Below are positions 11,310-17,676 of a stretch of 64,000 nt of DNA, one piece after another. Position 1 is the first letter of the stretch, and each line of letters opens with the position of its first letter. The position numbers were made by a program, and so were the translations under genes. This stretch comes from Poseidonia sp. (GTDB taxonomy: Archaea; Thermoplasmatota; Poseidoniia; Poseidoniales; Poseidoniaceae). The stretch lies in the NCBI GenBank assembly GCA_022426155.1, contig JAKMEE010000032.1, positions 9,800 through 73,799 on the forward strand, written 5' to 3'. The notes under the pieces are model-generated. The model had not been told where the DNA came from. It saw only the letters and a program-made list of their open reading frames with translations, and did not search any database.

Positions 11310-11918
11310 TCACTCGGACTCAAAAGCATCAATGACTTCAAGCAACTCAGTGTCTTCTCCGACCATTTCTTCGGCCTCACTCTTCTCTTCTTGCTCAACT
11401 ACTCCACCGAATGGATCCTTGCCATCCTCAACCATGCACAATAAGCGCCAGCGTGGTGCCCATGATAAATGGACATAGACTGGGCCAGGTAGTAAAAGAA
11501 GCATCCAAATCAGGACAGCAGGCAGGCCGATCAATTCTGTGCGGTCAATCGTCAACATTGCCAAACCAATGAATGGCATGGGATAGAGGATGTATCGAGG
11601 AGGCGCTATTGGGTGGCGTTTTGAGAAGGCGATGAGCATCACCGAGAGAAAACCCGTGAATGCGCACGCAACGATGAGCAAGGAAGCATGGAAGACCCAT
11701 TCGACACCCCACACTTCGTTATTTGTGGCGCCAAATGCATAGGGGAGGAGTAATGCAAGTGAAACAAGAAGTGCGTAAAATGCTCCAATGTTCGCTGGGT
11801 GACTCAGCCACAAAGGTAGTTTTGAAAATCGGCGTGACAGCGAGGTCCCCAGAAGCGTATCACGCTCGTGTGGGGCTAAATGCTCCACCCGTTGCATCCA
11901 ATTCTCAACGGTTGTCAC
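11310..11918 (-). CDS. Hypothetical four-TM membrane protein
   Basis: 202-aa ORF with four hydrophobic segments and acidic tail. Confidence 0.7.
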   Translation of the reverse strand: MTTVENWMQRVEHLAPHERDTLLGTSLSRRFSKLPLWLSHPANIGAFYALLVSLALLLPYAFGATNNEVWGVEWVFHASLLIVACAFTGFLSVMLIAFSKRHPIAPPRYILYPMPFIGLAMLTIDRTELIGLPAVLIWMLLLLPGPVYVHLSWAPRWRLLCMVEDGKDPFGGVVEQEEKSEAEEMVGEDTELLEVIDAFESE

Positions 11919-11975: not shown

Positions 11976-12653
11976 TCATTCTTCCTTGCGGAAGAACGAT
12001 ACCAATGGGCTCTCAACTTCGATTTCCCCTTCATCTTCCAACCAAGAGCGCTCAAGTAATCCAGAATCAAGCCCTTCCCGATCACGTGCTTCATCGATTG
12101 GATCAGGCACCGAATTCACGGCATTTCGCAAAGCGATGGCCTGGTTGATGAGGGCGAGGTGCCTCACAATCGTGGGGGTTCGTTCCTTTTGGGATGTGAA
12201 GTGACCTAGGACAGGATAGTCCAACGTGTCATGAACCAAATTATACCCTCCGAGTAATTCATCAGGAGCGAGACGGACTCGATGTTCACCGGTGTCAACC
12301 CAGCGCCCATCTGTTAGTTGAACTCGAACTTCTGCATCACTCAATGGGTTTTCATCCAGAAATGGATGGTTCATGTTGACTGCTAGGGGCGTGGTTGCGT
12401 GGCTGCGATATCGTGCCATGACAACCATGGCATTGAGTGCCATCAGGGATGCCCCAATGGTCAAGGAAACGGTACGGTCGGCGCTGAGCATAAGCAAGAT
12501 CACCCACACGATGATACCGGTTGCTAGACTTGCAAGAAGGCCCACATTTCGAGCTTGAACAAAGCCTTGAGCCACTGGAGTCTCAATGAACCGCAACATG
12601 CCAGCGGGTGGGTTGGATTGTGGACCCATGTCAAAGGTAATGTGTGGATTCAC
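11976..12653 (-). CDS. Hypothetical membrane protein (two TM plus soluble domain)
   Basis: Two hydrophobic helices; probable GTG start at 12653 after GAGGT, just past the DUF309 stop (ORF extends to 12740). Confidence 0.7.
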   Translation of the reverse strand: MNPHITFDMGPQSNPPAGMLRFIETPVAQGFVQARNVGLLASLATGIIVWVILLMLSADRTVSLTIGASLMALNAMVVMARYRSHATTPLAVNMNHPFLDENPLSDAEVRVQLTDGRWVDTGEHRVRLAPDELLGGYNLVHDTLDYPVLGHFTSQKERTPTIVRHLALINQAIALRNAVNSVPDPIDEARDREGLDSGLLERSWLEDEGEIEVESPLVSFFRKEE

Positions 12654-12660
12654 TTGAACC

Positions 12661-13047
12661 TCACGCCCGAGGTATTTGGTGGTCAGTGGCCTTGAGCTCC
12701 CAGGTTCCCACGTCCTTGGCATAATGGGATATGACTTCAAGATGCAGAGATATATTGAGGCCCCAGGCCACAGTCCAGCCTTTGAGTTTGGGCTCTAATT
12801 TAGCCCACTGGTTGGACACGCCACGTACTTTTTGTTGTTCGTGATGAAGCAATAGTGCAGCGGTTTGAATCAATCCCTGAATGAGCAGAACTTCACGTTG
12901 GGGTGCCATTCGGGCTTTGAGTTCGTTCCACAAATCTTCCCAGGATTCGTGTGCATGCCAAAATCTTCCAGCATCAAACCGTTCAAGTCCCTCTTGGAGC
13001 AAGATATCTTCGGAAGTCGACAACGGACCCGCTTGCTCCACCGCCAT
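12661..13047 (-). CDS. DUF309 domain protein
   Basis: FWHAHESWEDLW...LIQGLIQTAALLLH signature. Confidence 0.85.
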   Translation of the reverse strand: MAVEQAGPLSTSEDILLQEGLERFDAGRFWHAHESWEDLWNELKARMAPQREVLLIQGLIQTAALLLHHEQQKVRGVSNQWAKLEPKLKGWTVAWGLNISLHLEVISHYAKDVGTWELKATDHQIPRA

Positions 13048-13151: not shown

Positions 13152-15104
13152 ATGATTGAAATCCCGCACGGTGACCTCATCGAACAACGGCGCGGAGGCG
13201 TCGATGTTCTCCGTGTCATTGCCAAGGATTTGGAGCGTCACGAGCAATCTGGTGCGGTCAAGATATCCGCCCCAGACGGGACTCGTGTGGGGTGGTTGTT
13301 ATTTCGTATCGGGCTACCTGTGATGGCCTTTCACCACGGTGTAAAAGCAACACAAGGGCTTGAAGCACTTCTCGAAATTGAACAAGATGGTTTGAACATC
13401 GAGAACGAAGTGATGCTCTACGAAATGGGGGTGTCAGGTCTGCGTCAAACGATGAATGGCCACTCACACAGTATCCTTCACCTCGAGCGTGAAACTGAGG
13501 CATCGAGTGAAGGCCATTGGTGGTCTTCCGTCCGCCTTCCTTCGATCTCTTGGAATCGTGAAGCAAGGCCAGAAGATTACCAAACCTATGTCTTCGAACC
13601 CGAATCACTTCGACGAGGGCCCTCTAGGAGCAGTGCATCAGGTGATCAGGTCCTGATGCAGCCAGGGGATGTGTTGTTCATCGATTCTCCAGATCCACAC
13701 CCAATGATGCATCTTGGTATTGAGTTGGCAGAACGTGGATTGCCTTTCTTGGGATTGTTTGGGGCTCCTTTTGGTTCAACCGATGTGACACGTCGTTTGC
13801 CCATTCCCTCCTGCCATTCATTGATGGGCTCTCATGACCAACTTCATTCTCTTGAATCAGCGGATGACGTTCTGAAATGTCTTGAGACCTTCATGTGGGG
13901 TAATGAGCGTTCTGTTGTCGTCATCAACGGATTGGACCGATTGGGCAACGCTTTGGGAGATGATGCCATGCTCGATGTGTTTCGGGCACTCGTTGACGGT
14001 GTTCGTTTCAACGACCATCTCTTGCTATGCAGTACAGACCTTGAGGTCTTTTCGTTACCAGTGAGGCACGGCCTCTTGAGCGAGGCTCAAGAACTACAGG
14101 CAGCAACACTCAACAACTGGTTAAATGACACCGATGGCTTATTTGATCACCCGATTCTCACAGTCCAAGATGAAGATGAAGCCCGTTGGATTGAGGCTCA
14201 ATTGGTTCACCAACTTGGAGCTACCCCAAATGAAGAGGTCGCTGTTGCAAGTTTTTCGATGGAGGGGGGAGGGCTCCCCCCCGATGAAACAGAGCGGCAG
14301 GCAGCGGTAGAGGCACTTGCTGAACTCGTTGAAGACTGGCCAGCAGTGGAATCAGTGGAACCGGTCCCTTCGCATGTTAAAGTCCCACACAATTCCGAAC
14401 CAAGCGCATGGAAACCTTCCATTGAATCACCCGTTCGTTCTGGAAGATTTGTGAGCGAATCAACGCCGATTGAACCCGTAGTTGAACATGCAGTTCCTGT
14501 TGCGCTTCCTGAACCCAAATCAATCGCATCAACCACTTCGGATGTCAAGCCTGCATTACGACAACCGCAGAAGATGGTTCGTAGAAAGCCAAAGCCACAA
14601 TTCCCAGAGATCACCAACGGTTTGACCGTTGGCCGAAGTCACGCTCTGTCAGGTAATCCTCAATCATTGCCGGACTGGCCCGAACGAAACTCTTCTCCAA
14701 CTCGGTTCCTCAATGAGCAACTTGACCCTTACCAATCGCGACTTGAACAAGCCGAGAAACGACAAGCAATTCGACGTCCGATGCGAGAACAGACGGCTCT
14801 CAAGGACAATGTATCCGCAAGCGCTTCGTTCTCAGAACCTTCGTTGCCAGGAACTGTATCGGTCCCCACGCTGCCAAAAACACCGAGCGGAGAACAGATT
14901 CCCCTTGAAGGCGGAGTGCGACCGGAAGACGACCTCTCTACTAAACCTGCGAGGGAAGTGGCCTCCAGTGAACAACATACACCTACGATTGAGGAAGTTT
15001 ACGACCGATGGAACCAATGGGAAGATGAACAAATTGGCTCAACTACGGCTCTTTACAGCGAGCGTGGTGAAAAACTCAAAAAATTCGGGGAGGGTGAACA
15101 ATGA
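13152..15104 (+). CDS. DUF2226/PATAN-like N-terminal domain + DUF835 (inactive KaiC/RecA-like) domain + long Pro/Ser/Glu-rich tail
   Basis: MIEIPHGDL...SGAVKIS...GWLLFRIGLPVMAF...GLEALLEI...VMLYEM; SVVVINGLDRLGNALG...FRALVDGVRFNDHLLLCSTD; GGTGAG before start. Confidence 0.65.
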   Translation: MIEIPHGDLIEQRRGGVDVLRVIAKDLERHEQSGAVKISAPDGTRVGWLLFRIGLPVMAFHHGVKATQGLEALLEIEQDGLNIENEVMLYEMGVSGLRQTMNGHSHSILHLERETEASSEGHWWSSVRLPSISWNREARPEDYQTYVFEPESLRRGPSRSSASGDQVLMQPGDVLFIDSPDPHPMMHLGIELAERGLPFLGLFGAPFGSTDVTRRLPIPSCHSLMGSHDQLHSLESADDVLKCLETFMWGNERSVVVINGLDRLGNALGDDAMLDVFRALVDGVRFNDHLLLCSTDLEVFSLPVRHGLLSEAQELQAATLNNWLNDTDGLFDHPILTVQDEDEARWIEAQLVHQLGATPNEEVAVASFSMEGGGLPPDETERQAAVEALAELVEDWPAVESVEPVPSHVKVPHNSEPSAWKPSIESPVRSGRFVSESTPIEPVVEHAVPVALPEPKSIASTTSDVKPALRQPQKMVRRKPKPQFPEITNGLTVGRSHALSGNPQSLPDWPERNSSPTRFLNEQLDPYQSRLEQAEKRQAIRRPMREQTALKDNVSASASFSEPSLPGTVSVPTLPKTPSGEQIPLEGGVRPEDDLSTKPAREVASSEQHTPTIEEVYDRWNQWEDEQIGSTTALYSERGEKLKKFGEGEQ

Positions 15105-17104
15105 GTTCTACTCCTACCAAATTGGCTTTGGCTTTGGAAGATGCCAAGGAGAAAATCAAGGATACCATCTTGGCTCAAGCCTCTTCACCGGGTCCTGTGC
15201 CAATACCCCAGGAAAAACACATCCGTCCTGCATCATCAAAACTGAATACACTTTTGGGAACCAAGCATGTGAAGGACGAGCGTCCTTCTCTCTTCAAGAG
15301 GATTGGTGTGCCTCAACGACCAACCTACGATCTTGTTTCCGACCATGTCTTGGGCAAAGATGTCGAGGAGCATCGCACATTTTTAGAAAATTCGTCCACC
15401 TATGCGACGCATGTAGCCCAACGATTGAATCATTTACGAATGCAGCGCCAAAGTGATTTAGAGACCGACCAAACCGCTGATGATTCTGATGTATTCGTAG
15501 GAGTCGAGGGAGATGGGCGTCCAGTTTGGAATCATATTCTAGATGAGCAAAGGGGCTGGCATTCTACGCTCCCAGAGATTGATCTCCAGCCACCGAGCAT
15601 CGAAGATCCATTTCATGCGCGTCAGGTGTTGGATATCAAAGGAGATTGGCCTAAACGTTTGGCCTGGTCTGACCGTTTGACTTTCCGGCAGTGGTTTGTT
15701 TGCGATGAGAACATTCGAGCAACACAAGCATGTGAAGCCATCATTGATGCTCCATCTTCATCGTTGAATCCTTACGTCATTGTCGGCCAACCACATGCGG
15801 GTTGCTCTCACCTTCTGCATGCCACGGGGCAAGCTCTGTTGCGACGTCAAGAAGGACATGTATTGATGGTCGGTGCGGCTGATGTTGCGAACCTCGACGC
15901 CCTCACTTCGCAGTGGCAAGATGCCTTGGCCGCAGCCAGTGCAATCTTGGTTGATGACGTGCATGAATTTGCTGCACATCAAGATTGGTCTCATCAACTT
16001 GGGATTCTTCTAGACCACGCACTCAATCTTGGTTTGCAAGTTATTGTTGCTGGCCGTTCGAAGCCGGATAGATTGCCTCCCTCTCGCCTCAAAGAAGTAT
16101 TACGTCATTCAGCAAGTTCCACAGTTCAAATTCCTTCAAGAGCCACTTTGATGGCCTACGGGACGTGGCGCTCTTCGCAACTGAACCTGCTGGTAAACGA
16201 CGTTCATCTCGCCGCTATGGTTTCCATGGAACCAACCGGTTGGCGAGCGATGGAAGGACGATTGCAACAACTGGTCGTAGCCTTTGACTCGGGGGCAGTT
16301 CTTCTTGAACATGACAGTGTTGTGGATTTACTCAATGGTGATGTTCCGGGCCGCACTGCAAAGCATCAGGCCCTTGAACAACAACGAGTTGATGATACAG
16401 CTTCTCAATTGATCGGCCAAGCCATTGACAGTGTCTATTCATCTGTCGATACAGGTGGCGTTGAACTTCACTCCCCACTGGCCTCAATGGATGATGATGA
16501 TTATGAACCGCCCGAATGGGATGCAAGTGAATTCATGGAACGCGATGATTCCAACGTGAACCAGCGTGTTGCACAAACCATCGCCAAGATTACTCCTGCT
16601 GCTCCTTCTGTCCTTGATGTCAATGAGCGTGAACGCCATCTCATCGATCGTTCACGAACCCTTGAGGTGGATGATGCGTGGCGGGCAGCGGATGTTCTCG
16701 CTGCTTTGGATGAAGAAATTGATGCCCGTATCGATCACCGTCAGAGTTTCATGAAACAGGATTCAGAAGAACTCAATCGCCTTGAGGAGCGCATGGTTTT
16801 CTTGGCCCAAGAAGCCACAGAGGCAGATATTGAGCGATTGATATCCATCGCAGATGAACTTCGAGAACTCGAAGAACGACTGGCCGTATTGGACCCTGTC
16901 CAACAACCACTTCCTCACCTTGAACATACTCGCTCCCCTTCAACCCAACAGGGCATGGATGAGTATGAACCAGAAGGAGATTGGGACATTGATGAGGCGG
17001 AGGTTGAAGCCAACGATTTATTGATGAATGAACCGCCTCAAAAAACTCTGATTCGCCTGGGTCGAATTCGGCCAAAGACGGTGTTGATGGGTGAAGAAGA
17101 ATGA
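15101..17104 (+). CDS. DnaA/Hda-type AAA+ domain protein with degenerate Walker A and C-terminal coiled coil
   Basis: LTFRQWFVCDENIRA...LNPYVIVGQPHAGCSHLLHATG...ILVDDVHEFA...QVIVAGRSKP...RLKEVL...WRAMEGRL follows bacterial DnaA domain III; ATGA overlap with upstream gene. Confidence 0.8.
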   Translation: MSSTPTKLALALEDAKEKIKDTILAQASSPGPVPIPQEKHIRPASSKLNTLLGTKHVKDERPSLFKRIGVPQRPTYDLVSDHVLGKDVEEHRTFLENSSTYATHVAQRLNHLRMQRQSDLETDQTADDSDVFVGVEGDGRPVWNHILDEQRGWHSTLPEIDLQPPSIEDPFHARQVLDIKGDWPKRLAWSDRLTFRQWFVCDENIRATQACEAIIDAPSSSLNPYVIVGQPHAGCSHLLHATGQALLRRQEGHVLMVGAADVANLDALTSQWQDALAAASAILVDDVHEFAAHQDWSHQLGILLDHALNLGLQVIVAGRSKPDRLPPSRLKEVLRHSASSTVQIPSRATLMAYGTWRSSQLNLLVNDVHLAAMVSMEPTGWRAMEGRLQQLVVAFDSGAVLLEHDSVVDLLNGDVPGRTAKHQALEQQRVDDTASQLIGQAIDSVYSSVDTGGVELHSPLASMDDDDYEPPEWDASEFMERDDSNVNQRVAQTIAKITPAAPSVLDVNERERHLIDRSRTLEVDDAWRAADVLAALDEEIDARIDHRQSFMKQDSEELNRLEERMVFLAQEATEADIERLISIADELRELEERLAVLDPVQQPLPHLEHTRSPSTQQGMDEYEPEGDWDIDEAEVEANDLLMNEPPQKTLIRLGRIRPKTVLMGEEE

Positions 17105-17577
17105 GAGCACCCTGGTGGATGAAGGGCGTTCATTTTTCATGTCAATCGGGATGCGGTCGTTGTTGTGATCAACCCGGAGGGATCGTCTATCTCTCGTCTG
17201 ATGATGCAAAGCGGCTCGCTGAGCACGCACAATTGTCGGTGATTGATTGGTTGGAACGCGATGCTCGACAAACGCATGATGGGCGTTATGTGCTCAAAAG
17301 CCGGGAAGAAGATGGGATTTGCATTCACCTGAATGAACAGAAACAGTGTGGAGTTTACCAAGTACGTCCGCAGCAGTGTCGAGCCTTTCCATGGTGGGGT
17401 GAAAATTTAGCCTCTGACAGAGCTTGGAAGAAGGTCAAAGAGAATTGTCCAGGGATTGATGCTGAGGATGCAATCATTGTTGACGGACATACCATTCGAT
17501 TGCACGTCTTTGCAGACCGAGAGTCGAGCAAAGGATTCAGAACATGGCCTCCAGAACCGCGTCGGCGTAAATGGTAG
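17101..17577 (+). CDS. YkgJ-family (CxxCxxCC) cysteine-cluster protein
   Basis: FSCQSGCGRCC...CIHL...CGVYQVRPQQCRAFPWW...CPGI; ATGA overlap. Confidence 0.9.
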   Translation: MRAPWWMKGVHFSCQSGCGRCCDQPGGIVYLSSDDAKRLAEHAQLSVIDWLERDARQTHDGRYVLKSREEDGICIHLNEQKQCGVYQVRPQQCRAFPWWGENLASDRAWKKVKENCPGIDAEDAIIVDGHTIRLHVFADRESSKGFRTWPPEPRRRKW

Positions 17578-17676
17578 GCTGCGGCGGTGTTGCTGGCAAC
17601 ACCGAAGAAAACACCTCGATATTAGAGGAGCCGCATTTATACCAAACCCATCACTCGGCTTCTTCGGGGGAACACA

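Follow-up and report, generated by a model that had tools for sequence, protein, structure and literature searches.

Two adjacent genes of Poseidonia sp. (Archaea, Thermoplasmatota, Poseidoniales) were analyzed within a stretch of 64,000 nucleotides (assembly GCA_022426155.1, contig JAKMEE010000032.1, positions 9,800 to 73,799 of the forward strand), referred to here as the window, and are interpreted as the split form of a single three-module unit, which is fused in other Thermoplasmatota. Gene 1 (13152-15104, + strand, 650 amino acids, aa) is read as an adaptor protein in which a PATAN/DUF2226-like N-terminal domain (N-domain) is followed by a DUF835 domain of inactivated KaiC-like type and by a disordered tail, and gene 2 (15101-17104, + strand, 667 aa) as a DnaA/Hda-type AAA+ protein without the DNA-binding domain IV. 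Both are followed by gene 3 (17101-17577, + strand, 158 aa), an open reading frame (ORF), as are the other two, for a YkgJ-type CxxCxxCC protein with eight cysteines. Whether the pair now serves this lineage as a non-catalytic adaptor or switch complex is in our judgement an even call, for which the fused relatives, the coupling of the two genes, their joint occurrence and the decay of catalytic motifs are laid out below. A literature search on DnaA in Poseidoniales or Marine Group II, on DUF835 and on archaeal PATAN domains yielded no description of this arrangement.

Fused relatives, joint occurrence and gene coupling

The joint action of genes 1 and 2 as one unit is best supported by the fusion of their domains in single proteins elsewhere. 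The original prediction had proposed a look for fused versions, and their discovery supports a joint function of the two genes. Of 17 large DnaA-like ORFs scanned in 14 genomes of other Thermoplasmatota, six (five genomes, five families) had DUF835 (33-99 bits) C-terminal to Bac_DnaA (182-234 bits) in one polypeptide, with DUF835 above its cut-off in five and at 32.8 vs 33.1 bits in the sixth; others among the scanned ORFs contained zinc ribbons, TPR repeats or a T2SSE ATPase. A profile of the gene 1 N-domain matched the N-termini of 11 DnaA-like ORFs and of one neighbouring ORF with 15-52 bits, the E-values of this search referring to the small ORF set from 19 loci. All three domains were united in one protein in L120 (743 aa) and L121 (611 aa), and weakly in L134. 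L121, the one fused module checked residue by residue, retains GKT, the box VII (SRF) arginine and sensor 2. None of five large DUF835 proteins of other genomes, which had been suspected as fusions, proved to be one, PF00308 lying elsewhere in the genome or being absent.

Neighbours of the fused genes vary and include zinc-ribbon proteins, GNAT acetyltransferases, Ras-like GTPases and a RadA/KaiC-like ATPase. At L136:3232-5853 (G096) two Ras-family small GTPase genes were seen directly downstream of a fused N-domain-DnaA-DUF835 gene, with a 148-aa gene of no family between, a two-GTPase layout which we take to be reminiscent of MglA/MglB-type polarity modules. The 230-aa RadA/Rad51/KaiC-like ATPase gene at L137:3575-4267 (G003) overlaps the end of a fused DnaA-DUF835 gene by 4 nucleotides (nt), and a gene for a GNAT acetyltransferase lies immediately beside the fused gene in two families (L103:11539-12288, G166; L136:7841-8500, G096). 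At L132:3832-6294 (G021) one protein combines Bac_DnaA (234 bits) with a T2SSE secretion/pilus ATPase domain (124 bits).

Within Poseidoniales the two genes were found side by side. From 105 contig stretches with gene 1 relatives 80 were kept as loci, and gene 2 follows gene 1 in 74 of these 80, the remaining six ending before gene 2 could show. Their titles were archaeal in 77 cases (Poseidoniales or a broader label) and bacterial names of metagenome-assembled genomes (MAGs) in three; the latter (L022, L071 and L081, named Verrucomicrobiales, Rhodobiaceae and Yoonia) contain the full Poseidoniales gene block and are probably binning errors. In a sample of 301 Thermoplasmatota genomes, gene 2 was present in 42/42 genomes of f1, i.e., Marine Group IIa (MGIIa, Poseidoniaceae), in 8/21 of f2, i.e., Marine Group IIb (MGIIb, Thalassarchaeaceae), and in 0/8 of f3, while gene 1 was present in 41 of the 42 f1 genomes and in the identical eight f2 genomes. 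Streamlined MGIIb loci without the pair (5/5 examined) still have the aminotransferase and citrate synthase genes of the flanks, which abut each other, and genes 1-3 are gone together with a gene for a 254-aa protein.

The coupling of the three genes by ATGA start-stop overlaps at 15101-15104 (genes 1/2) and 17101-17104 (genes 2/3), as originally described, was read directly in the sequence in head-to-tail order. Since an overlap of 4 nt is kept between genes 1 and 2 in 65/77 related loci and between genes 2 and 3 in 62/64 loci with both genes on one strand, the overlaps are, as judged from the sequences, not due to chance; gene starts for these counts were set by script according to likeness to the window, with the start codon nearest the expected position taken.

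Domains of the two proteins and decay of the catalytic motifs

The architecture originally given for gene 1, with a compact N-terminal domain, a RecA-like middle and a long tail, was recovered in its AlphaFold2 (AF2) model, which displays an N-domain at residues 1-110 (predicted local distance difference test, pLDDT, ~80-89), a RecA-like middle at ~164-340 (pLDDT ~80-90) and a tail mostly of low confidence. Organism names of its 87 homologues, where given, were all Poseidoniales or a broader archaeal label. The window's own protein had no Pfam hit in hmmscan and matched nothing in NCBIfam, a search of PDB sequences gave no meaningful match, and a further word-based search with the gene 1 alignment added no relatives beyond the first set.

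For the N-domain (13152-13481, + strand, ~aa 1-110) the assignment to the PATAN/DUF2226 type comes from predicted-structure matches and from a transitive sequence link via L120, by which the PATAN-like call of the original prediction is borne out at this qualified level. A structure search of the Atlas brought up clusters named DUF2226 or PatA_N with TM scores of 0.73-0.87; these matches compare predicted model with predicted model and were counted as one source. The window's N-domain had no match to the PATAN/DUF2226/DUF4388 models (PF09987, PF14332), and DUF2226 was matched in 1/16 N-domain sequences with E 0.0098. The N-domain profile aligned by hhalign with the N-termini of the fused L120 (94.6%) and L121 (91.2%), and the N-terminus of L120 itself lies above the DUF2226 cut-off (22.7 vs 22 bits). 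PF09987 gave no match in the window's own genome nor, by six-frame search, in 151 Thermoplasmatota genomes. Against the PDB the N-domain profile gave weak matches (E 0.05 and above), among which the c-di-GMP-binding GSPII/MshEN-type domain of Thermus PilF recurred at E ~0.3-0.5, which is not significant.

The middle domain (13641-14171, + strand, ~aa 164-340) is of the RecA/KaiC-fold DUF835 type and lacks Walker A. In VIA-align comparisons it matched PH0250 (Z 11.5), FlaH (Z 11.3) and KaiC (Z 11.2), and Foldseek matches comprised RecA and PH0284. On the window's protein DUF835 (PF05763) reached 13 bits (E 0.09), below the cut-off of 33.1; more distant gene 1 homologues do carry it, 15 of 20 aligned family members being matched with a best E of 3.4e-17, and the family profile aligned with the DUF835 part of the fused L121 at 96% (hhalign). 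The DUF835 call is thus upheld through the relatives, the fused protein and the KaiC/FlaH-like fold, with the window's copy sub-threshold. No P-loop GK[ST] was present at the expected place in any of 20/20 aligned sequences. A second, ordinary DUF835 protein is encoded on another contig of the same genome (G000:C42:20748-21119; open frame 279 aa, 53 bits), and most MGIIa genomes have two DUF835 matches.

The gene 1 tail (14184-15101, + strand, ~aa 345-650) is mostly of low confidence (pLDDT mostly <50). Short conserved motifs lie within it, among them a basic patch, and its C-terminus is conserved; conserved columns are R470, Q473, L506, P507, R601, E602 and Q608.

Gene 2, with 112 homologues, matched Bac_DnaA (PF00308) at 38.8 bits (cut-off 23), which confirms the DnaA-like core previously claimed for it. 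The best NCBIfam models were DnaA (TIGR00362, 53.5 vs 343.9 bits) and Hda (TIGR03420, 44.3 vs 194.8 bits), both far below their equivalog cut-offs. The AAA+ module with its lid, of the DnaA domain III type, occupies 15653-16339 (+ strand, ~aa 185-413), and its model (residues 187-413) aligned in VIA-align with DnaA III of T. maritima (2z4r, Z 23.6, root mean square deviation 2.3, 225 aligned), DnaA of B. subtilis (8bv3, Z 23.6), DnaA 1l8q (Z 21.9) and Hda 3bos (Z 19.6); outside DnaA/Hda the best AAA+ protein reached Z 15.9, and Cdc6/Orc1 Z 15.2. The family profile retrieved 13807 proteins at E up to 0.001, among which true bacterial DnaA had the highest per-domain scores outside the gene 2 family (102-113 bits). 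Beyond the module the protein is extended by ~180 residues N-terminally and ~250 residues C-terminally, the latter part including long helices inside a conserved acidic region (16667-16891, + strand, ~aa 523-597; AF2 helices 523-574 and 577-597, pLDDT ~80-86), and an Atlas search with this C-terminal part gave no usable match.

Neither DnaA domain I (PF11638) nor domain IV (PF08299) was found in the gene 2 protein, and PF08299 (Bac_DnaA_C) had no match at E up to 1 across the genome (89% complete), in which two Orc1/Cdc6 genes lie above cut-off on contigs C19 and C31. Because domains I and IV are missing and the genome possesses two Orc1/Cdc6 genes, gene 2 is not the replication initiator. Searches with gene 2 also brought up metagenomic tandem proteins (P0243-P0299 and others) of ~550-700 aa, which have two Bac_DnaA AAA+ modules and no domain IV, and giants of 1248-1990 aa, which combine an MshEN domain with two DnaA modules under the source label 'DnaA'.

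In the window the Walker A motif of gene 2 (15785-15808, + strand, aa 229-236) is degenerate, with Cys235 in place of the P-loop lysine as aligned to DnaA. Across 78 family sequences this position holds Cys in 35 (the window's included), Arg in 20, Lys in 20, and Gly, Val and Thr in one each. Lysine stands inside a canonical GxxGxGK[ST] in 5/6 MGIIb sequences and in those MGIIa genera that are most distant from the window, arginine marks an intermediate group, and cysteine is found in the window's own group. The box VII arginine-finger position, mapped via alignments of gene 2 to DnaA and to the fused L121, is occupied by Val, Leu or Ala in 78/78 sequences and by Arg in none (0/78). Walker B (DD 285-286) and sensor 2 (W-R 381-382) are retained in nearly all sequences, and the N-P-L-x-I-x-G lead-in is kept as well. 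The term pseudo-ATPase, which the original prediction had applied to both proteins, therefore seems to suit this genome (Cys235 in gene 2, no P-loop in gene 1), but not the gene 2 family as a whole, because relatives keep the P-loop lysine.

Gene 3, transcription and neighbouring genes

The CxxCxxCC call for gene 3 was substantiated by PF03692 (43.5 bits vs a cut-off of 23), the sequence displaying CxxxCxxCC and four further cysteines; NCBIfam gave no match. Its tie to the pair proved looser than its position would suggest. It lies on the opposite strand in 5/6 MGIIb loci, where genes 1 and 2 remain adjacent on one strand, and no homologue was seen in 19 loci around DnaA-like genes of other Thermoplasmatota. 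It is also far more conserved, with 61-83% identity in 62/63 MGIIa loci (51% in one), vs 25-49% for gene 1 and 28-56% for gene 2. In favour of a tie, gene 3 was found nowhere in 5/5 tested genomes without genes 1 and 2. Gene 3 is thus an operon member in MGIIa, probably co-transcribed there, with a weaker functional tie to genes 1 and 2, and it may be a mere neighbour.

GGTGA precedes the ATG of gene 1 by 7 nt. As a TTTATA box (17636-17641) stands 36 nt 5' of the start of the next gene, citrate synthase, the transcription unit is suggested to end after gene 3 and the box to be a separate archaeal promoter for citrate synthase. The stretch was wholly or partly present in 20 of 24 runs listed, from 11 studies; two runs labelled metatranscriptomic are probably DNA, and the sole run recorded as RNA (X20) contributed a single 362-nt contig (17325-17686), which is uninformative on an operon transcript.

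Upstream, a divergent gene (11976-12740, - strand) encodes the 254-aa protein that is missing along with genes 1-3 in streamlined MGIIb loci; it has a long hydrophobic stretch and no Pfam family, and is a possible associate of genes 1-3, to be regarded as a lead only. A second divergent gene (11310-11918, - strand), whose product likewise has a long hydrophobic stretch and belongs to no Pfam family, is kept in 3/5 of these loci.

Proposed function, rival readings and known systems

Genes 1 and 2 would encode the halves of one three-module unit, in which a DnaA-type AAA+ module is combined with a PATAN/DUF2226-like domain for interaction and with a DUF835 domain of the inactivated KaiC-like kind. 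In Poseidoniales the modules would be spread over two translationally coupled genes, each lengthened by long, presumably disordered regions with conserved short motifs, and the cell would be expected to make both proteins in matching quantities, as partners in a complex. Since the P-loop lysine is intact in the fused L121, as are its box VII arginine and sensor 2, the unit probably began as a AAA+ switch or oligomer driven by ATP. Within MGIIa the P-loop lysine would then have been replaced stepwise (K -> R -> C), with the window at the cysteine stage, so that the pair in this lineage would most likely be an adaptor or scaffold independent of nucleotide hydrolysis, as has been proposed for archaeal KaiC-like signalling proteins. 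A wider version, in which a bacterial initiator ATPase module gave rise to a phylum-wide, non-replicative PATAN/DnaA-AAA+/dead-KaiC switch, with a nucleotide-independent split form in Poseidoniales that might link some signal to division, genome maintenance or another core process, is offered as a speculation that we think rather unlikely.

Several points weigh against the split adaptor complex. Binding of the gene 1 and gene 2 proteins is a deduction, and when residues 1-420 of gene 2 were modelled as a complex with residues 1-345 of gene 1 from their respective alignments, the score was 0.00 and the mark 0.32, which speaks neither for nor against binding. The order of domains differs, with N-domain/DnaA/DUF835 in the fusions vs N-domain and DUF835, then DnaA, in Poseidoniales. 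In a quick tree all Poseidoniales gene 2 modules formed one clan (Shimodaira-Hasegawa-like approximate likelihood ratio test, SH-aLRT, 99), split into MGIIa and MGIIb, on a long stem whose attachment point the tree did not settle, so descent of gene 2 from the fused forms is not established; furthermore, the gene 2 profile scores bacterial DnaA higher (102-113 bits) than the fused archaeal modules (65-93 bits). The conserved order of genes 1 and 2 proposed for a synteny check was indeed found across Poseidoniales, but taken alone it is weak evidence, because the entire neighbourhood, a block of eleven genes from the aminotransferase to PAP2, is collinear across the whole order, and the joint loss may reflect one or few events among related streamlined genomes. 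Concerning the loss of ATPase activity, a basic residue 2-3 places past the finger position could replace the missing arginine, and P-loops changed from lysine to arginine may still bind nucleotide.

Other readings were weighed against the same evidence. Gene 2 might be an Hda-like replication regulator that docks on Orc1/Cdc6 or the replisome to tune the cell cycle or initiation, gene 1 serving it as an adaptor. Its AAA+ module does belong to the DnaA/Hda clade, lacks domain IV as Hda does and retains the sensor-2 arginine, and Orc1/Cdc6 and DnaA both belong to the initiator clade of AAA+ proteins; Hda, however, works through its arginine finger, and the finger position holds no arginine in gene 2, the Hda model is missed by a wide margin, the locus adjoins neither of the two Orc1/Cdc6 genes, 13 of 21 sampled MGIIb genomes do without gene 2, and the fused relatives occur in varied non-replication contexts, so that we hold this regulator to be improbable. 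Cell-cycle control, one of the roles originally considered, received no pointer in the analysis. Low credence is likewise given to a three-part system, in which YkgJ would sense metal or redox state and signal to two pseudo-ATPases that control polarity or motility. The 4-nt overlap of genes 2 and 3, the lack of gene 3 in the tested genomes without the pair, and the binding of cyanobacterial PATAN to PilB1 and PilC (PMC11181946) agree with it; yet gene 3 is inverted in most MGIIb loci and absent from the 19 loci of other Thermoplasmatota, which leaves the metal or redox input assigned to YkgJ weak, and its far higher conservation is expected of a protein with a job of its own. Nor was the motility role supported, as archaellin (PF01917) does not co-vary with the pair, occurring in 3/8 pair-bearing vs 3/13 pair-less MGIIb genomes.

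That genes 1-3 stand together only because a collinear core region was inherited, with functions that have nothing to do with each other, would accord with the eleven-gene order kept across the order. It is disfavoured for genes 1 and 2 and possible for gene 3: the start-stop overlaps are conserved, genes 1-3 were excised jointly with their flanks kept, and five other families have the domains of both gene 1 and gene 2 within a single protein, so that as a whole this explanation appears very improbable. A module for defence against viruses or of a mobile element, with NTPase folds as its basis, would fit the combination of two NTPase-fold proteins and their patchy occurrence in MGIIb, but none of five proteins had a PADLOC match, the position among housekeeping genes of the core genome is fixed in 80/80 loci, and the gene 2 tree splits MGIIa from MGIIb as vertical descent predicts; this disfavoured module is scarcely to be credited. 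The pair is read as neither initiating replication nor regulating the archaellum, and as no known system of defence.

Read as a split adaptor complex, the pair is of interest in several respects. Poseidoniales rank with the most abundant surface-ocean archaea, and in this uncultured order, which initiates replication with Orc1/Cdc6, a DnaA-type module is a conserved core gene, here wired to dead KaiC and PATAN-like domains instead of DNA. The K -> R -> C series at the P-loop offers a natural experiment in the change from ATPase to pseudoenzyme, the fused forms in sister lineages lead to the prediction that both proteins form one complex, and a function, if found, would extend both archaeal signalling and the DnaA family by a new branch.

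DnaA-type ATPases are the replication initiators of bacteria. With bacterial DnaA III and Hda, gene 2 shares the AAA+ core and lid, the N-P-L-x-I-x-G lead-in, the Walker B DD and the sensor-2 arginine, and with Hda the lack of domain IV; unlike them it has no finger arginine, has Cys for the P-loop lysine in this genome, bears new N- and C-terminal extensions and resides in an archaeal host with Orc1/Cdc6, and unlike DnaA it is without domains I and IV. DUF835 has been described as an inactivated KaiC ('iKaiC') output domain of archaeal signalling proteins (Galperin et al., 2018, PMC5847659). Gene 1 resembles such proteins in that a P-loop-less RecA/KaiC fold is joined to other signalling-type domains; it differs in its partners, a PATAN-like domain and a DnaA-type AAA+ module rather than REC or PAS, and in a copy below the Pfam cut-off. 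Makarova et al. are said to have described in 2017 an archaeal KaiC-based signalling hub with an active KaiC-like ATPase beside an inactivated one; among the eight proteins flanking genes 1-3 none is KaiC-like.

The N-domain of gene 1 resembles the PatA_N/DUF2226 models of PatA-type PATAN regulators of cyanobacteria (PixG, PixE), whereas gene 1 is without a REC domain, does not match the family's Pfam model and has no link to pili or archaella that could be found. In those regulators the binding of the pilus motor proteins PilB1 and PilC (PMC11181946) represents a protein-binding output touching an ATPase. This link, the DnaA-T2SSE fusion and the MshEN fusions are hints at a tie of DnaA-like modules to type IV filament ATPases. 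Closest to genes 1 and 2 are the fused Thermoplasmatota proteins, of which no published account was found. They are single polypeptides in the order N-domain/DnaA/DUF835, with canonical GKT and box VII arginine in L121, some with extra HEAT, UQ_con-like or zinc-ribbon parts, and they have neither long disordered tails nor an adjoining YkgJ gene; what they (L120, L121, L134, L103, L124) share with genes 1 and 2 is the set of three domain types and an N-domain that matches the gene 1 profile.

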